Virus record (IMG/VR): IMGVR_UViG_3300037067_015318
Span: 287 to 64,286 of that record
Origin: a virus
Lineage: Duplodnaviria > Caudoviricetes
Strand: one strand, 5' to 3'
DNA length: 64,000 bases
Part shown: positions 3,158-63,173 of the stretch, in pieces
How positions within the stretch are numbered: position 1 is the first letter of the stretch
Layout of the letters: every line of letters starts with the position of its first letter
Position numbers and translations under genes: made by a program
The notes under the pieces: model-generated
Told to the model about the DNA's origin: nothing
The model's input: only the letters and a program-made list of their open reading frames with translations
Databases searched by the model: none

Positions 3158-4600
3158 ATGGATCCTTTTGAGAAGAACTTCAGTGGCTTCGCCCAGAGCA
3201 ACTCCGAAACGATGGAGCTCCTGACGAAAGCCCTCACGGCGGGAAGCGGCGTAGATGCCGGTTCCTTCACCGGTGGTCGTGCCCTGACCCCGGAATCGCT
3301 GGACTACACGCTCGTCAATATCCTGCATAACCAGGATGAAGCGAGACTGTTCCAGCGCCTCAAGAAGACGCCGATCAAGTCGGTCGTGCGTCAGTGGAAC
3401 GAACGAAACGGCGTTGGTGGGGATGATGGTGCGTGGGTGGCGGAAGGTGGTACTTCCGAATCTGCCGATCAGACCATCGCCCGTAAGTACGCGGTCGCCA
3501 AATACCTGCAGACCTTCAGGCAGGTGACGCTACAAGCGTCCATGAGTGACATGGTCGAAAACGCCATGGCAATCGAGAAGGAAGCTGGAACCCTCTGGCT
3601 CATCCGGAACGTGGAAAAGGCCCTCTTTGAGGGGAATGAGGCTTACATCGCAGAACAACCGAACGGTCTCAAGGCTCAGATCCCTGCTTCCAACGTCGTC
3701 GATTTCCGTGGGAAGCATGCGGATGGAGAGAACTTCGAGGATGAGATCACCAATGGTCTCGGACTCATCAGGCAGAACTATGGGAAGGGTAATCTGCTCC
3801 TCTCGTCTGTCAAGGTCACCACGGACATCTCGAAGATGCTTCGGGACAAGTACCGTGTACCTCTCCCGGCCAGTGGAGGCTCCCAGATGGGTGTTCCTGT
3901 CGGCGGTGGAGCTTCTGGTGGGTCAGTCGCTTCGACGTTTCCCATCAACTTCCCGACGCCTTTCGGCAACCCGGAAGTGCTGGATGACGTGTTCCTTCTG
4001 GAAGGTACGACTCCTGCCGCGTCCAGCCTCACCACCAAACGGCCCGATGTCTCGACCCTTTCGGACTACGCGCACGCCCCGGACGCACTCTCGTTGTTCG
4101 GTTCCCCCGACGCCGGCGACTACGTGTATAAGGTGGTTGGAGTCAACAAGTACGGTGATTCCGTCGCCAGTGCTGAAATCGCGGCTACGGCCGTTGCTGC
4201 GGGCGACAAGGTCACCTTCCGTGTCACTCCGGGAGCTGTTGCTCCTACTGCGTGGAAGGTCTACCGGTCCAAAGTCGGTGCTGCCGCGGGTACCAGTGCG
4301 GAAGTGCGGTACATGTTCACGGTCGCCTACGCCCTCGACTCCGGGATGGCCTACCAGACCATCACCGATTACAACAATGACCTCCCGGGCTGCTCGGACG
4401 TGTATCTCCTGACCATGGACACCATCTTCGACGCCATCGAGTGGTTCCAGTTCCTGCCGCTCATGAAGTTCGACCTGTACCCGACCAACGCCGCGGTGTT
4501 CCCGTTCCTCATGATCCTGTACGGGGCCATGGCTCTCAAGAAGCCCGTTCAGCACGTGCGGATCAAGAACGTCTGCCCGATTAACGGTGGGTGGTTCTGA
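3158..4600 (+). CDS. Major capsid protein (Twort/SPO1-like, with beta-rich insertion domain)
   Basis: 480 aa; N-terminal KA|LTAG...RALTPESLD, YKVVGVNKYGDS insertion, C-terminal RIKNV; strong codon bias. Confidence 0.85.
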   Translation: MDPFEKNFSGFAQSNSETMELLTKALTAGSGVDAGSFTGGRALTPESLDYTLVNILHNQDEARLFQRLKKTPIKSVVRQWNERNGVGGDDGAWVAEGGTSESADQTIARKYAVAKYLQTFRQVTLQASMSDMVENAMAIEKEAGTLWLIRNVEKALFEGNEAYIAEQPNGLKAQIPASNVVDFRGKHADGENFEDEITNGLGLIRQNYGKGNLLLSSVKVTTDISKMLRDKYRVPLPASGGSQMGVPVGGGASGGSVASTFPINFPTPFGNPEVLDDVFLLEGTTPAASSLTTKRPDVSTLSDYAHAPDALSLFGSPDAGDYVYKVVGVNKYGDSVASAEIAATAVAAGDKVTFRVTPGAVAPTAWKVYRSKVGAAAGTSAEVRYMFTVAYALDSGMAYQTITDYNNDLPGCSDVYLLTMDTIFDAIEWFQFLPLMKFDLYPTNAAVFPFLMILYGAMALKKPVQHVRIKNVCPINGGWF

Positions 4601-57198: not shown

Positions 57199-58174
57199 TG
57201 CCTTCTCCTTTCGTGATGGTTATGTACACACGTTCAAAGATTTCATAGCGTTGTCGATATATCTGGGGGATGAGTTCAAGTTCCTCACAGGGTCTATCAG
57301 GGCTACCGAATTCTTTGCACTCCTGTCGAAGTATACCAGTGACACAATCGACATAACTACGTCTGAGAGCGGCTTGGAGATTTCCAGTGGGCGGTCCCAC
57401 GCTGTCTTCACGTTCCTAGAAGATTCCGTCCTGAAACAGGTGGACAATATGGCTCTATCTACGCTGGTCTGGAATCCCATACCCGTAGAGTTTCGGGAGG
57501 CTCTGTCATACTGCTTACTTGGGGCGCGGGAGTACAACTTGGAAGGGGTGCGTGTACGAGGGGATGTGGTGCTGTCTGTTGACTCGAAGAGAGCCAATCG
57601 TTTCGTGATGTCCAGCAATGGGGGTGATTTCCTTCTGGAAGAGCGCGTAGTATCTGAGCTCCTCAAGTTTCAGGATTTCGTGGAATATTCCGTTTCCCCT
57701 CAGCGCGTGTTCATCCGATTGAATGGTGGTACGATCGTCTCGGGTAGACGGAAGGTTGATTCCGAGTACCCAACAGACAAGATACTTAGGATGATCGAAA
57801 CGTTAGCTCCAGATAAGGCTGACCCTCATGGTGTACTTCCCGAAGGGTTCCGTGCAATGATGTCGCGAGCTTCCATTCTGTCCGGTGACCTGTCAGGATT
57901 GTCGGTTGTGAAGTTGACCTTTACTAAGGAGTGCATTCAGGCCTCCTCCCAACGTTCCACAGGTAAGTATGATGAGAAGCTAGGGTGGGAGAAAGAACCC
58001 GAAGGTCTTGAGGAGCCAATCACAGTTTGTTTGGAGTCCTCATCAGCGTTCTATGCCCTTGAGAAGTCATCCACGTTTGCTATCAAATCAGTAAATGGGT
58101 TGAAGCGGTTTGTATTCATTGGAGAGAACTGCTCTTGTTACCTTGCTGCATATATGGAGCGTACTGGTGAATGA
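57116..58174 (+). CDS. Sliding clamp (beta-clamp-like)
   Basis: 352 aa, VNREKLLQRL start, three-domain length, SEYP motif; next to the polymerase. Confidence 0.65.
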   Translation: MASVNREKLLQRLQNAIVGAEKGEFLTNAFSFRDGYVHTFKDFIALSIYLGDEFKFLTGSIRATEFFALLSKYTSDTIDITTSESGLEISSGRSHAVFTFLEDSVLKQVDNMALSTLVWNPIPVEFREALSYCLLGAREYNLEGVRVRGDVVLSVDSKRANRFVMSSNGGDFLLEERVVSELLKFQDFVEYSVSPQRVFIRLNGGTIVSGRRKVDSEYPTDKILRMIETLAPDKADPHGVLPEGFRAMMSRASILSGDLSGLSVVKLTFTKECIQASSQRSTGKYDEKLGWEKEPEGLEEPITVCLESSSAFYALEKSSTFAIKSVNGLKRFVFIGENCSCYLAAYMERTGE

Positions 58175-60845
58175 GGGATTCTTCGAGGACTTGGGGGTAC
58201 ATGCTCCCAAGGTAAGTAGGCAGAAATCTCCTCGTACCCCTACAAAGGGAGCACCTTCTAAGAGCACACAGACCGTTCTTACCTGTGAGGATTGTGGACT
58301 TTACAAGAACTGTCATTCACCTAAGATGCCTCCCACGGGGCAGGGCAGGAAAAAGATTCTTGTAGTAGCTGAGGCTCCAGGAAGGAAGGAAGATGAGGAA
58401 GGGACACAACTCATTGGGAAATCTGGGCAGTACCTACGGGAAGCCTTGAATGCTTTGGGAGTTGATCTTGACAAGGATTGTTGGAAAACAAATGCAGTGA
58501 TTTGCCGTCCTCCTGATAATAGGACACCTACCCCCAGGGAGTTGAAGATCTGTCGTACAAACTTGTTGAATACAATCGAGATATATCAGCCCAGGGTTAT
58601 CATCCTCATAGGTGGAGCCTCCTTCGATTCATATATGGCTCCTCGGTTGTTGGGAAGGGTTGTTAACACCCCCTATAGTAGTTGGGTAGGATGTACTATT
58701 CCTGATCAAGAGACAGGAGTATGGATCTGTCCAATCTATCATCCCTCATATCTTCTACGTCCTCAGAATGTAGTCAGGAAGGACCGGGAAGGAGAGGAGG
58801 ATAAAGTACTAGCTGCAATGTACCGAAGGCATCTCAAGAGGGCTGTTGAGTTGGTTGATGTGGAAGTCCCTCGAGTTGATTTAGGTGATTTTGAGACTAC
58901 TTCTGATGAGTCCTTAGCAGTTGAGTGGATACATGGTTTGATGGAGAGGAAGCCTCGGTGGGTGACTTTTGATTATGAGACTACTGGTTTGAAGCCTCAT
59001 CGGGAAGGACATAGCATTAAGGTCATTTCGTTCTGTGATGGCACGTATACGAGGGCCTTTATGAATACCCCTCGAGTTTCGGAAGCATGGCGGATGTTTC
59101 TTTCATCATGTGATGATAATCATACGGGTATTATCTGTCATAACATTTCCTTCGAGGAGATGTGGTCTCTTCAGTGTTTAGGTGTCTCTCTCGATATACG
59201 ACGAAGATGGGACACACTTCTAGGTGCTCATATTATCAATAACAAATCCTCAGTGGGTTTGAAGTTCCTGGTATATTCACAGTTCGGTGTGCTAGGATAT
59301 GATACTGATGTAGATTACTTCATTGAGAATGTGAAGCCAGGGGAAGATCCTAAATCTTGTAATTCATTCAATCGGATTGATGAAGCAGACCCTCAGAAAC
59401 TTTTAGTATATGGAGGGGAGGATTCTTTCTATACACATCGGCTATTCTTATCTCAGTATGAGACATTCAGGAAGGATCATCATATAAGTAATGGTGCAGC
59501 ATTCTTTTTTGATGCAGTAGGAGCATTGGCGAGAATGCAACAGAATGGGGCGTGTCTTGATACTACTGAGTTGCAGCGTACAAAGATTAAGATATCCCGG
59601 AGGCTTGAGTGTATACGAGAACGGATTCAGGAGAGTCCTGCAGTCAAGAAGTGGGATAAGCCCGAGCCCTTCAATTTCAATTCCCCTCCCCAATTGATTC
59701 ATCTTCTGTATGATATTATGAAAGTCCCTGTTAAGAACGTGACTGCTACAAAGCGGCCAAGTGTGAATGAGGAAACCCTTGAGAAGTTGAAAGATACTAT
59801 TCCTGTTGTTCGTGAGATCCTCGATTATCGGCATTGGTCTAATAAGGTGTTGAAGACCTATCTTGGTCAGTACGAACGTGAGGTTATCGAGGGGCTTATA
59901 CATGCTTACTTTGGACTCGGGAATGTTGATACATTTCGGTCCTCTTCATACGATCCTAATCTACAGAATGTCCCGAAGCGAGACGAAATCATAAAATTAC
60001 TTCTTAGGTCCTTGATTCGTCCGAGGCCAGGTCATAGACTTATCGAGTATGATTACAAAGCACTCGAAGTTGTTATAGCCGGGTGTGTTTTCAAAGATCC
60101 TAATTGGTTGTCATATTGTCGGGATACCACAAAGGACATGCATCGTGATACAGCAATTGAAATACTATACTTGACTGATCAGTATGGGGTTCCTTGGTCC
60201 TCTCTGGATAAGGTAACTGCAAAGGTGACTCGGCAGGCTTCAAAGAACGGGTTTGTATTTCCTTCGATCTATGGATCTTCTGGTAAGTCTGCTGCTGCAG
60301 GAATGTGGGAGCAGTTACCAGATATTATACTAAAACACTTAAAAAACAATGTTGGTATTAGGAATCTTGGAGACTTTACATTCCGGATGATGGATTACGA
60401 AAAAGTGTATTGGGGAGAGCGTTACCCTATTTACGACAGGGCTCGTAGGGAACTATTCAGGTCATATGAAAAGAAGGGGTATATTGAACAGGTTACAGGG
60501 TTTCGATGTTATGGGCCTATGTCATTCATGCAGGTTGTAAATTCCCCAGTACAGGGACCCGCTTCTCATGTCAAGTTGAAGACCTTATCTGAGGTGTCAA
60601 GAAGGATAGATGAGGAAAGGAGAGACATACTCCCAGTCATGGAGATTCATGACTCAATGATTTTTGATGCTTCCCCCGAAGATGAGGAGTGGTTAGATAG
60701 CACGGTACAGTACCATGGCACCATTAAGGTTGTGAAAGATTGGGATTGGGTTATTGCACCTCTACTTCTTGAGAAAGAAAGGAGTGAGGTTGACGGTTCT
60801 TGGGCGCGTATGGAAGGATGTGGGTATCTTAAGGAGATCGTATGA
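58167..60845 (+). CDS. Family A DNA polymerase with N-terminal family-4 uracil-DNA glycosylase domain
   Basis: CEDC..C, AEAPG, CRPPDNR and HPSY (UDG); FDYET exonuclease; PNLQN, YDYKALE and IHDS (PolA). Confidence 0.9.
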   Translation: MNEGFFEDLGVHAPKVSRQKSPRTPTKGAPSKSTQTVLTCEDCGLYKNCHSPKMPPTGQGRKKILVVAEAPGRKEDEEGTQLIGKSGQYLREALNALGVDLDKDCWKTNAVICRPPDNRTPTPRELKICRTNLLNTIEIYQPRVIILIGGASFDSYMAPRLLGRVVNTPYSSWVGCTIPDQETGVWICPIYHPSYLLRPQNVVRKDREGEEDKVLAAMYRRHLKRAVELVDVEVPRVDLGDFETTSDESLAVEWIHGLMERKPRWVTFDYETTGLKPHREGHSIKVISFCDGTYTRAFMNTPRVSEAWRMFLSSCDDNHTGIICHNISFEEMWSLQCLGVSLDIRRRWDTLLGAHIINNKSSVGLKFLVYSQFGVLGYDTDVDYFIENVKPGEDPKSCNSFNRIDEADPQKLLVYGGEDSFYTHRLFLSQYETFRKDHHISNGAAFFFDAVGALARMQQNGACLDTTELQRTKIKISRRLECIRERIQESPAVKKWDKPEPFNFNSPPQLIHLLYDIMKVPVKNVTATKRPSVNEETLEKLKDTIPVVREILDYRHWSNKVLKTYLGQYEREVIEGLIHAYFGLGNVDTFRSSSYDPNLQNVPKRDEIIKLLLRSLIRPRPGHRLIEYDYKALEVVIAGCVFKDPNWLSYCRDTTKDMHRDTAIEILYLTDQYGVPWSSLDKVTAKVTRQASKNGFVFPSIYGSSGKSAAAGMWEQLPDIILKHLKNNVGIRNLGDFTFRMMDYEKVYWGERYPIYDRARRELFRSYEKKGYIEQVTGFRCYGPMSFMQVVNSPVQGPASHVKLKTLSEVSRRIDEERRDILPVMEIHDSMIFDASPEDEEWLDSTVQYHGTIKVVKDWDWVIAPLLLEKERSEVDGSWARMEGCGYLKEIV

Positions 60846-61066: not shown

Positions 61067-61097
61067 AACCACTTAATTGTTTACGAAGGAGGAAGGG

Positions 61098-63173
61098 ATG
61101 GGGTTGTACCACAAATATCGACCACAGAGTTTTGATGAGTTACTCGGCAACAAGGAAGTGATTCAGACTCTGAATGACGCATTATCAAATCCGAGTCGTG
61201 CACATGCTTACCTTTTCACAGGGCCCAGTGGTTGTGGGAAGACAACGGCTGCACGCATATTCGCCAGAGCTTTGGGGGTCTCTGACCTTGCTTTCAAAGA
61301 AATTAACTCTGCCAATAATAGGGGAATTGATACCGCAAGAAATATCATTGCAGAGATGCAGTCATATCCGTTCGAGGGGAAGATTTGGGTATGGATTATT
61401 GATGAGTGTTTCCACAGGGATACCCTTATCAGTACACCAAGCGGAGAAAAGCCCATCTCGTCAATTTCCCCAGGGGAAGATGTGATTTCTGCTGCGGGGA
61501 TTTCTAAAGTTCGTCATGTATATAAGAATATAGTTCCCTTAGATCGCATAGTTCGTGTTGACCTTGAAAAGGGCCCAATCTTTACGACCAAAGACCACCT
61601 GTTTTTTACGGTAAGAGGTTGGGTGAAAGCTGGTGAGTTAACGCGCGGCGACTTGACTTTTATAGCTCCCGCGGGTATAATGGAATACAGTATACCTGGA
61701 GGGGATTATGAGAAGAAACGACAGAAAGTACAAAAAAATCTGCGTAGTATGTGGGAAGGAATTCTACGCCGCACTCGATCGGGCGAAGTGTTGTTCAGAG
61801 AGTTGTCGAGTCAAGCTGAACAATATGAGGTCCCCGACTATCAAAAAGGTGTGTCCTCAGTGCGGGCGAGAGTTTATGGCTTTTGGAAAAGCTTCAAAGT
61901 ATTGTTCTCACAGTTGCCTTGGAAAAGCAAATACTGCTTCTCCACAATGGAAGGAGAAAATGAAGAACCCCGAGCGTTCCGCGAAGATACGAGCTGCAAG
62001 GTTGGCATTTCCTCCAGAAGTGAAGGCACGATTGAGGATGGAATCATCAGAAAGAATGAAGAGGAACAATCCATCAAAGAATCCATTAGTGATTCAAAAG
62101 ATTATAGAAACAAAAAGAATGCATGGTACTCTCGATGTGTTAAAATACTATCGTGGTGGGAATGGGCACTATACCGATTCTCAGCTTTTGTTAGGGGCGG
62201 TTTTGGGATGGGATATGGAGCGAGCTATTCCTACCAAGAAGGTGATGGCACAGGTGCCAAACTCTTACAAGGTGGATTTAGCCCATCCCTCTTTGAACCT
62301 TGCAATCGAAGTAGATGGGCCAGATCATTTACTTCAGAAGCACCTTCTTTTAGATCAGAAGAAAGAGGAGTGTCTCAGACGTCTAGGGTGGAAGGTGTTA
62401 CGAGTTACAAACCAGGAGGTCATAACCGATCTTTCGACAGTTGTATCTCGTGTGAGGATGTGGATAGGGGCTATGTCGAGTTCTACGACTTAGATGTTGC
62501 GGGGCATCATTCGTATTTCGTTGAGAAGGTGCTCGTACATAACTGTCATATGACTTCCAAGGATTTCCAGAATGCAATGCTGAAGCCTTTGGAGGATACA
62601 CCTGATCATGTTTACTTCTTCCTTTGTACAACGAATCCTGAGAAGCTCATTCCTGCCATCAAGACACGGTGTGCCGAAGTTCAGTTTTCTACCCTTGAGC
62701 CTCGGTATATTTCCCTTCTGGTGAAGCGTGTAAGCCGACAGGAAGGAATCGAACTGGATCAGGAGGTCATTGAAGAGATAATTGATGCTTCCCAGGGTTC
62801 AGCTAGGTCAGCCCTTGTCATCCTGGAGAAGATCTCCAAACTAGGGAAGGAACAAGCACTTAAGCTTCTCAGATCCCATCCTACCGATCTTGAGATGGAG
62901 GGAGGGAAAGTACTGGACTTGTGCCAAGCACTTACTCGTAAGGATGGTACGTGGGGGGACGTGGCTAGTGTCCTAAAGGAGGTGTATGAGGAGGAATCAG
63001 ACCTCGAGAAGATACGCTATCAAGTGTTAGGGTATGCAGCCTCTGTTCTCTTACGGGGGAAAGGAGGGAATCGGGCTGCATTGATCATAGAGTGCTTCTC
63101 CCAGCCTTTCTACGACACGGGGAGAGCTGGGGTGACATTGGCTTGTTACCAATCAATGACGTTAGGCAAGTAA
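61098..63173 (+). CDS. dnaX: Clamp loader (DnaX gamma/tau-like) precursor containing an intein
   Basis: LYHKYRPQ, GPSGCGKTT, IIDE|intein|CH, NAMLKPLED and IKTRC motifs. Confidence 0.9.
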   Translation: MGLYHKYRPQSFDELLGNKEVIQTLNDALSNPSRAHAYLFTGPSGCGKTTAARIFARALGVSDLAFKEINSANNRGIDTARNIIAEMQSYPFEGKIWVWIIDECFHRDTLISTPSGEKPISSISPGEDVISAAGISKVRHVYKNIVPLDRIVRVDLEKGPIFTTKDHLFFTVRGWVKAGELTRGDLTFIAPAGIMEYSIPGGDYEKKRQKVQKNLRSMWEGILRRTRSGEVLFRELSSQAEQYEVPDYQKGVSSVRARVYGFWKSFKVLFSQLPWKSKYCFSTMEGENEEPRAFREDTSCKVGISSRSEGTIEDGIIRKNEEEQSIKESISDSKDYRNKKNAWYSRCVKILSWWEWALYRFSAFVRGGFGMGYGASYSYQEGDGTGAKLLQGGFSPSLFEPCNRSRWARSFTSEAPSFRSEERGVSQTSRVEGVTSYKPGGHNRSFDSCISCEDVDRGYVEFYDLDVAGHHSYFVEKVLVHNCHMTSKDFQNAMLKPLEDTPDHVYFFLCTTNPEKLIPAIKTRCAEVQFSTLEPRYISLLVKRVSRQEGIELDQEVIEEIIDASQGSARSALVILEKISKLGKEQALKLLRSHPTDLEMEGGKVLDLCQALTRKDGTWGDVASVLKEVYEEESDLEKIRYQVLGYAASVLLRGKGGNRAALIIECFSQPFYDTGRAGVTLACYQSMTLGK
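61653..61681 (+). promoter_or_regulatory. Sigma70-type promoter inside the intein
   Basis: TTGACT-N17-TATAAT, followed by GGAGGGG (61698) and ATG (61708). Confidence 0.8.
61708..62493 (+). CDS. Nested +1-frame endonuclease (Cys-finger repeats plus DUF559/Vsr-like domain)
   Basis: CVVC..CCSESC, CPQC..YCSHSC, YKVDLA...LAIEVDGPDH...LRRLGWKVLRVTN. Confidence 0.85.
   Translation: MRRNDRKYKKICVVCGKEFYAALDRAKCCSESCRVKLNNMRSPTIKKVCPQCGREFMAFGKASKYCSHSCLGKANTASPQWKEKMKNPERSAKIRAARLAFPPEVKARLRMESSERMKRNNPSKNPLVIQKIIETKRMHGTLDVLKYYRGGNGHYTDSQLLLGAVLGWDMERAIPTKKVMAQVPNSYKVDLAHPSLNLAIEVDGPDHLLQKHLLLDQKKEECLRRLGWKVLRVTNQEVITDLSTVVSRVRMWIGAMSSSTT

Follow-up and report, generated by a model that had tools for sequence, protein, structure and literature searches.

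A phage clamp-loader gene with a probable composite selfish element: an intein with a Vsr-like endonuclease gene nested in its +1 frame

Contiguous inteins whose endonuclease is encoded in another frame or on the other strand have been reported and were termed rare (Gosselin, Arsenault & Gogarten, bioRxiv 10.1101/2025.01.02.630785). The reported types are an antisense LAGLIDADG, an antisense VSR-like and a same-strand, frame-3 endonuclease VII-like endonuclease, and the hosts are actinobacteriophage polymerase, minor capsid, terminase and thymidylate synthase. They were proposed to arise when a free-standing endonuclease gene invades an intein. The same preprint cites an antisense LAGLIDADG endonuclease in the Synechocystis dnaX intein (Gorbalenya 1998). 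In fractured genes, a Vsr-like endonuclease gene lies between the halves of a split intein, and the 3' end of this gene runs into the C-intein (Dassa et al. 2009, PMC2677866). Hairpins found just 5' of these endonuclease genes were likened to the translational attenuator of phage Aeh1, where a hairpin that sequesters the ribosome-binding site (RBS) controls the nrdA endonuclease (Gibb & Edgell 2007, as cited in PMC2677866). A group I intron within the recA gene of a phage encodes I-Bth0305I, the founding EDxHD homing endonuclease (Taylor et al. 2011, PMC3239194; PDB 3r3p). Here we describe an intein in the clamp-loader gene of a virus (Duplodnaviria; Caudoviricetes) that carries, in its +1 frame and on the same strand, a gene for a Vsr-like endonuclease. 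The DNA analyzed, called the window throughout, is a stretch of 64,000 nucleotides (nt), positions 287 to 64,286 of the IMG/VR record IMGVR_UViG_3300037067_015318 (64,286 bases, estimated 75% complete).

Double coding at this locus is real and under selection. We consider it highly probable that the locus is a composite selfish element, consisting of a contiguous, cis-splicing class-1 intein and a nested +1 endonuclease gene in a phage clamp loader. The intein would be translated as one contiguous precursor and would splice in cis. The Vsr-like (EDxHD) gene, with a putative Shine-Dalgarno (SD) sequence, start and stop of its own, is read in +1 and lies between the two splicing parts, N-terminal and C-terminal, and the unstructured filler read in the intein frame would be excised along with the intein. 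Each potential stop in the intein frame can be removed by a synonymous T-to-C change, and about 40 double-coding codons tie the C-terminus of the nuclease to the first C-terminal splicing strands. The endonuclease is expected to cut intein-less alleles near the DE/VH codons, and repair would then copy the whole composite in. The features of the locus are listed in Table 1.

Table 1. Features of the clamp-loader locus, in window coordinates
Feature	Position	Strand	Remarks
Clamp-loader (DnaX/RFC-like AAA+) gene with intein	61077..63173	+	698-aa open reading frame
Class-1 intein, 379 aa	61407..62543	+	Splits DE from CH in the Walker-B motif (IIDE before, CHMTS after)
N-terminal splicing (Hint) part, intein residues 1-95, with C1 and T61xxH64	61407..61691	+	pLDDT >90; conserved in 35 inteins
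Putative sigma-70-like promoter TTGACT-N17-TATAAT inside the intein	61653..61681	+	11/12 match
Predicted RNA hairpin that pairs the nested gene's SD and AUG	61660..61711	+	-21.3 kcal/mol, z -4.76, 0/200 shuffles
SD sequence GGAGGGG of the nested gene	61698..61704	+	
Nested homing endonuclease gene, +1 frame	61708..62493	+	261 aa plus stop
Intein-frame read-through (filler)	61710..62366	+	Open, poorly conserved, no predicted fold
Two CxxC...CxxxC zinc ribbons, residues 12-33 and 49-70	61741..61917	+	Weak YacG/FCS-type matches
DUF559/Vsr-like (EDxHD) nuclease domain, residues 154-258	62167..62481	+	Pfam, invariant residues, structure
Catalytic residues E201, D203, H207, D216	62308-62355	+	Invariant in 49 sequences
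C-terminal splicing part, intein residues 321-379	62367..62543	+	pLDDT 80-95; conserved RVE..YDL..HN block

Across the 786 nt of the nested open reading frame (ORF), the intein frame has 0 stops. The expected number was 16.7 with a synonymous shuffle and 21.5 with a codon-order shuffle, and a zero-stop outcome was obtained in 0 of 20,000 shuffles of either kind. The third frame over the same DNA has 22 stops. Each intein-frame codon begins with the wobble base of an endonuclease codon, so a stop in the intein frame requires a T-ending endonuclease codon before AA, AG or GA. In the window, T-ending codons were found before these dinucleotides in 0 of 78 cases and elsewhere in 39% of 182. Among 73 unique relatives, the corresponding values were 0 of 6285 and 31% of 12,160. 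In the standard code each NNT codon has a synonymous NNC partner and, thus, in the +1 register the intein frame can always stay open without changing any amino acid of the endonuclease. The code also implies that, in the second same-strand register, a TGA is unavoidable wherever an A-starting codon comes after Met. A free-standing relative of the endonuclease (L006) provided a natural control, with 20 stops in the corresponding frame.

Stop avoidance was the sole clear selection signal in the intein frame. In the relatives, the substitution pattern indicates that the +1 frame is under purifying selection. In moderately diverged pairs, the third codon position of the +1 frame diverges 2.5-3 times faster than positions 1 and 2. 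Divergence of the endonuclease at positions 1, 2 and 3 was 0.063, 0.071 and 0.172 for the pair L076/L081 and 0.080, 0.089 and 0.254 for L058/L073. Amino-acid identity was higher for the endonuclease than for the host frame in every listed pair.

The intein retains all the residues expected for splicing. C1 directly follows DE at 61407 and is invariant among 35 aligned inteins, as are H378 and N379. Block B reads T61-K-D-H64, with H64 at least 90% conserved in the same alignment, and the +1 Cys is found at 62544. The Pfam family Intein_splicing matched with 38.6 bits (cutoff 35.8). A structural model built from the 35-sequence alignment gave pLDDT (per-residue confidence) values of 80-96 for residues 1-95 and 321-379 and below 50 for residues 129-320. 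This model had 35 PDB matches at E <= 0.001, nearly all of them inteins or related Hint domains, and the top match was the gp41-1 intein (E 4.9e-7). gp41-1 is a fast split intein, which we take to be one of those from the fractured genes described above; its PDB title reads only 'gp41-1 intein'. The intact residues, together with selection for an open frame, suggest that the intein is active in protein splicing.

Scans of the intein frame with Pfam and PHROGs gave no endonuclease family, and about 220 of the overlap codons are filler when read in this frame. The first 127 nt or so of the C-terminal splicing part (62367-62493) also encode the C-terminus of the nuclease, and both frames are conserved there. 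The last 40 or so endonuclease codons (LGWKVLR... to the stop) double as the conserved RVE..YDL strands of the intein. Since these codons overlap folded C-terminal splicing strands, this stretch is not filler and is constrained in two frames.

The nested protein has two zinc ribbons followed by a helical linker and a C-terminal nuclease. C49, C52, C66 and C70 of the zinc ribbons were at least 90% conserved in an alignment of 49 sequences. Pfam DUF559 (PF04480) matched residues 185-249 with an E value of 1.1e-9 (38.5 bits; gathering cutoff 20.6), and the PHROGs matches of the ORF were endonuclease families. The model built from the 49-sequence alignment had a mean pLDDT of 92.1. A Foldseek search with the whole endonuclease model returned nothing at E <= 0.001. 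Comparison at the level of the nuclease domain gave structural Z scores of 13.2 to 3hrl, 11.7 to 3r3p (I-Bth0305I) and 10.2 to 1cw0 (Vsr). The family is large: 3209 clusters reach E <= 0.001, and 842 reach E <= 1e-10.

An initial annotation of this DNA, made from its letters and ORFs, had proposed most of this layout. The two ORFs were present as it described them (698 aa, and 261 aa in +1), the splicing blocks were intact, the intein's own frame held no endonuclease, the nested product was indeed zinc ribbons, a linker and a confidently folded DUF559/Vsr-like nuclease, and the promoter-like site and the SD were located. Its description of the middle of the intein as motif-less filler holds for 220 or so codons of the overlap and fails for the last 40 or so nested codons (about 62367-62493), which belong to the folded splicing part. 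The core of the proposal, a dual-coding element with an out-of-frame endonuclease of the free-standing type, an intein frame kept open and a read-through that is excised, stands. The selection pattern that it predicted, purifying in +1 with stop avoidance in the intein frame, was observed in the relatives.

Relatives were then sought among other phages. A nucleotide search of GenBank phages with this region had no match. By tblastn, the endonuclease was found in GenBank phages under 'helicase' annotations. In Pseudomonas phage MR14, Corynebacterium phage phi673, Vibrio phage CP-T1 and Vibrio phage 1.088.O, it lies in +1 within the helicase coding sequence, with the intein at DE/CH. In these records (L001-L004: MT104474.1, NC_042354.1, NC_019457.1 and MG592463.1), the helicase coding sequence is annotated and the intein and its nested +1 endonuclease are without annotation. 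The tblastn matches in Mycobacterium phages covered the zinc-finger part alone, and were set aside as uninformative on the antisense VSR-like inteins of the 2025 preprint.

A single-protein query of IMG/VR had found nothing, and a profile search with an alignment as query gave 215 relatives, the best 80 of which were taken. In 85 of 85 loci, including the window, the endonuclease is in the +1 frame of an open host frame of 617-1369 aa; it was in +2 or antisense in 0 of 85. Three further short metagenome contigs also have the endonuclease nested in +1. Every intein with a placeable N-terminal junction is at a Walker-B DE/C site, and the C-terminal ends are HN/C or SN/C, with one AHN/C. Of 70 unique loci, 39 had a clamp loader as the host gene, 24 an SNF2-like helicase and 7 a DEAH-type (ResIII/DEAD) helicase. 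In most loci, 78-106 aa of the N-terminal part precede the endonuclease start. From the endonuclease stop to the end of the intein there are 50 nt in the window and 8-74 nt in relatives, mostly 50 or 65.

Several individual loci differ in what surrounds the nuclease. The closest called protein relatives of the endonuclease have 42-44% identity, and one of them, at L006:465-1106, is free-standing, without an intein; two small genes flank it, and it shares 14 nt with a MazG-family gene. Two SNF2-like helicase genes (L044:729-4835 and L058:837-4802) have a second, upstream LAGLIDADG_3 insert besides the DE/C intein with its nested nuclease. Two metagenome loci (L091:102-2110 and L092:588-2893) show an apparent single indel that places the N-extein and N-intein in frame with the nuclease. 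In these, the C-intein and C-extein form a separate ORF that overlaps the end of the nuclease by 82 nt (L091) or 31 nt (L092). The shift in L091 is at an A-run; at the L092 junction, neither of the two continuing frames is closed. L091 and L092 could be either errors or natural fractured or in-frame intermediates.

An allele without the intein was present in a related contig (L087) that has its gene order in common with the window. Its clamp loader is 79% identical, 319 aa long and intein-less, with WIIDE-VHMTS at the site. In the nucleotide alignment of the two, L087 has a gap of 1141 nt that coincides exactly with the intein, and the candidate empty site reads ...ATCGACGAG / GTGCATATG..., the slash marking the junction. 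In a quick tree, the endonucleases cluster largely by host gene type, with 5 label changes compared to 26 when labels were shuffled. A few well-supported mixed pairs are suggestive of occasional jumps between ATPases sharing DE/CH.

Could the nested gene be a decaying relic, unexpressed or inactive, within a mini-intein whose large junk insert is kept open for the host gene? The window's endonuclease sits on a long branch of the quick tree (terminal length 1.24), the promoter and hairpin are not universal, and no RNA run is listed among the runs that hold the stretch. We regard a relic as unlikely, since the ORF is intact in 85 of 85 loci, the catalytic and zinc-binding residues are conserved, the divergence biased to third positions indicates purifying selection on +1 and the endonuclease has a confident fold. 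The sporadic presence of the intein, absent in L087, also fits continued mobility.

Several points weigh against a functioning composite element as we have described it. Expression, splicing and cleavage are all predicted from sequence. The window has no close intein-bearing relative (best endonuclease identity 44%) and, thus, the evidence from substitution patterns was drawn from other family members. The loci compared are the best 80 of 215, which places any share of other layouts among distant relatives outside the comparison. Only some of the relatives have promoter-like sites or hairpins that hide the SD, and over all loci the difference from controls was not significant. The bases of the -35 and -10 boxes also encode intein residues, and their conservation may be partly a coding effect. 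Of the four runs whose contigs match the stretch, two may be the contig's own source and, hence, not independent; the other two cover 21/30 and 13/30 bins.

The -10 box of the predicted promoter sits in the 5' arm of the predicted hairpin. In the read-through clamp-loader mRNA, this hairpin would hide the nested gene's SD and AUG. A transcript from the internal promoter, starting near 61688, would be without the 5' arm and would leave the RBS exposed. Promoter scores of at least 11 were reached in 8 of 1460 control windows, and scores of at least 10 in 11 of 73 loci and 43 of 1460 controls. Hairpins with z < -2 were predicted at 16 of 70 loci and 7 of 70 controls (Wilcoxon not significant). 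SD-pairing hairpins recur, with different sequences, in a subset of the clamp-loader loci. An SD of at least 4 nt was found in 56% of relatives, and most loci have an SD and ATG of their own for the nested gene, with start-codon calls being uncertain for the SNF2-like group. Since the promoter and hairpin are limited to some relatives, the regulatory model fits at best a subset, mostly clamp-loader loci. For the window, separate expression from the internal promoter is plausible, and the promoter together with the SD-hiding hairpin suggests that this expression would be gated.

Another explanation is that the read-through is unused and the locus is a fractured gene, with the C-intein and C-extein translated separately and trans-spliced as in Dassa et al. 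(2009). The endonuclease family and the 3' overlap with the C-intein are the same, the intein fold is nearest to the gp41-1 split intein, and L091 and L092 have a two-ORF arrangement. A dispensable read-through would gather stops; instead, there are none among the 6285 dangerous codon pairs, compared to 20 stops in L006, and no stop follows the N-terminal part. We rejected trans-splicing on these grounds, as very improbable: the host frame is stop-free and stops are avoided. Programmed ribosomal frameshifting that fuses the N-terminal splicing part to the nuclease appears just as improbable. The L092 junction, where both continuing frames are open, speaks for it. A second shift would be required to regain the C-terminal splicing part, the open host frame over the whole nested gene would be unneeded and is left unexplained, and most loci have an SD and ATG for the nested gene, so this candidate was rejected as well.

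Least likely of all are assembly or sequencing frameshifts hiding a true in-frame endonuclease domain, which we reject even though the contig is of metagenomic origin and L091 and L092 are one indel from the standard layout with the N-intein in frame with the nuclease: indels cannot make both frames open in one sequence, the nested ORF comes with a start, SD and stop of its own, the same +1 relation recurs in four GenBank phage genomes and 80 IMG/VR loci, and contigs from 4 runs in 3 studies (two landfill, 2018, and one groundwater, 2022) match the stretch without gaps or indels and with no differing bases except two in one piece, so the compensating indels named by the initial annotation as a refutation did not appear.

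A wider proposal builds on the composite element and is more doubtful, although well within the range of the possible. Far from being a rare accident, nesting in +1 on the same strand may be how a large family of phage inteins at the DE/C(H) Walker-B site of clamp loaders and helicases was ancestrally built, as a fixed design. Under this proposal, the two genes would be locked together by the 40 or so shared codons, +1 would be the sole same-strand register that can always be opened free of cost, and the hairpin and internal promoter would form a switch that times endonuclease synthesis.

The host ORF has Pfam matches to DNA_pol3_delta2, AAA, clamp-loader lid domains and Intein_splicing, and its frame has 0 stops over 61077-63173. 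The ATG at 61098 is the likely true start of the clamp loader, since the intein-less homologue in L087 aligns from MGLYHKY; it is preceded by GAAGGAGGAAGG. Upstream of the intein gene is a family A DNA polymerase (58110-60845) with an N-terminal domain of the uracil-DNA-glycosylase superfamily (residues 75-219). Downstream is a Vut_1/YhhQ-type transporter, whose longest ORF (GTG 63092) overlaps the 3' end of the clamp-loader gene by 82 nt (63092-63173); its real start may be 3' of this GTG. Elsewhere in the window, a 288-codon open +1 frame (3546-4412, + strand) was found within a capsid-like ORF (3158-4600, weak SU10_MCP match). It has no Pfam match, its translation is rich in Arg, Ser, Pro and Thr, the region is 58.6% G+C and the synonymous shuffle gave P = 0.005. 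This open frame is probably a composition effect, though longer than expected.

The clamp-loader locus offers a clean natural case of a long same-strand overlap (786 nt) with a countable rule that keeps one frame open at no cost to the other. It links two published pictures, that of the fractured gene and that of the non-canonical intein. On the way from a mini-intein to a split intein or to an intein with an in-frame endonuclease, the expected intermediate is a contiguous intein in which a free-standing endonuclease gene is nested, and single-indel variants of both kinds are present (L091, L092). There is also an annotation gap: the four inspected GenBank phage records name the helicase only and omit the nested nuclease. 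Relatives of this gp41-1-like intein tolerate an unstructured insert of about 230 aa, which may interest intein engineers.

The novelty of the locus is limited. The initial annotation knew of no description of this architecture; out-of-frame and antisense intein endonucleases (bioRxiv 10.1101/2025.01.02.630785, and Gorbalenya 1998 as cited there) and fractured genes (PMC2677866) are already published. The same-strand, +1, VSR-like combination is not among the reported types, and literature searches, including ones for clamp-loader inteins and different-frame inteins, found no paper on a same-strand +1 VSR-like endonuclease in Walker-B inteins.

The element resembles the inteins of Gosselin et al. 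in being contiguous, with splicing presumed, in having no endonuclease fold or motif in its own frame and in carrying the endonuclease ORF in another frame. It differs from them in being a Walker-B clamp-loader intein with a same-strand, +1, VSR-like endonuclease, uniform in 85 of 85 loci, which is none of the reported combinations. The catalytic domain has the fold of I-Bth0305I (Z 11.7 over 90 aligned residues; profile E 2.7e-3) and keeps its E, D, H and D; the likeness covers the catalytic domain, and the gene is nested in an intein here and encoded in an intron there. A hairpin that sequesters the RBS also controls translation of I-TevI in phage T4. As in the Aeh1 and I-TevI systems, a stable hairpin, here predicted, pairs the endonuclease SD and start codon within the host transcript; the placement of an internal -10 box in the 5' arm of the window's hairpin is likewise a prediction. 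With fractured genes, the element shares its setting in phage replication genes, the endonuclease family, the strand and the C-intein overlap at the 3' end, and the endonuclease gene likewise brings along control elements, here predicted, with a hairpin upstream of the gene among them. In fractured genes, the host frame stops after the N-intein and a spacer of 27-51 nt precedes the endonuclease gene. In the composite element, by contrast, there is neither stop nor spacer, and the host frame spans the whole endonuclease gene.

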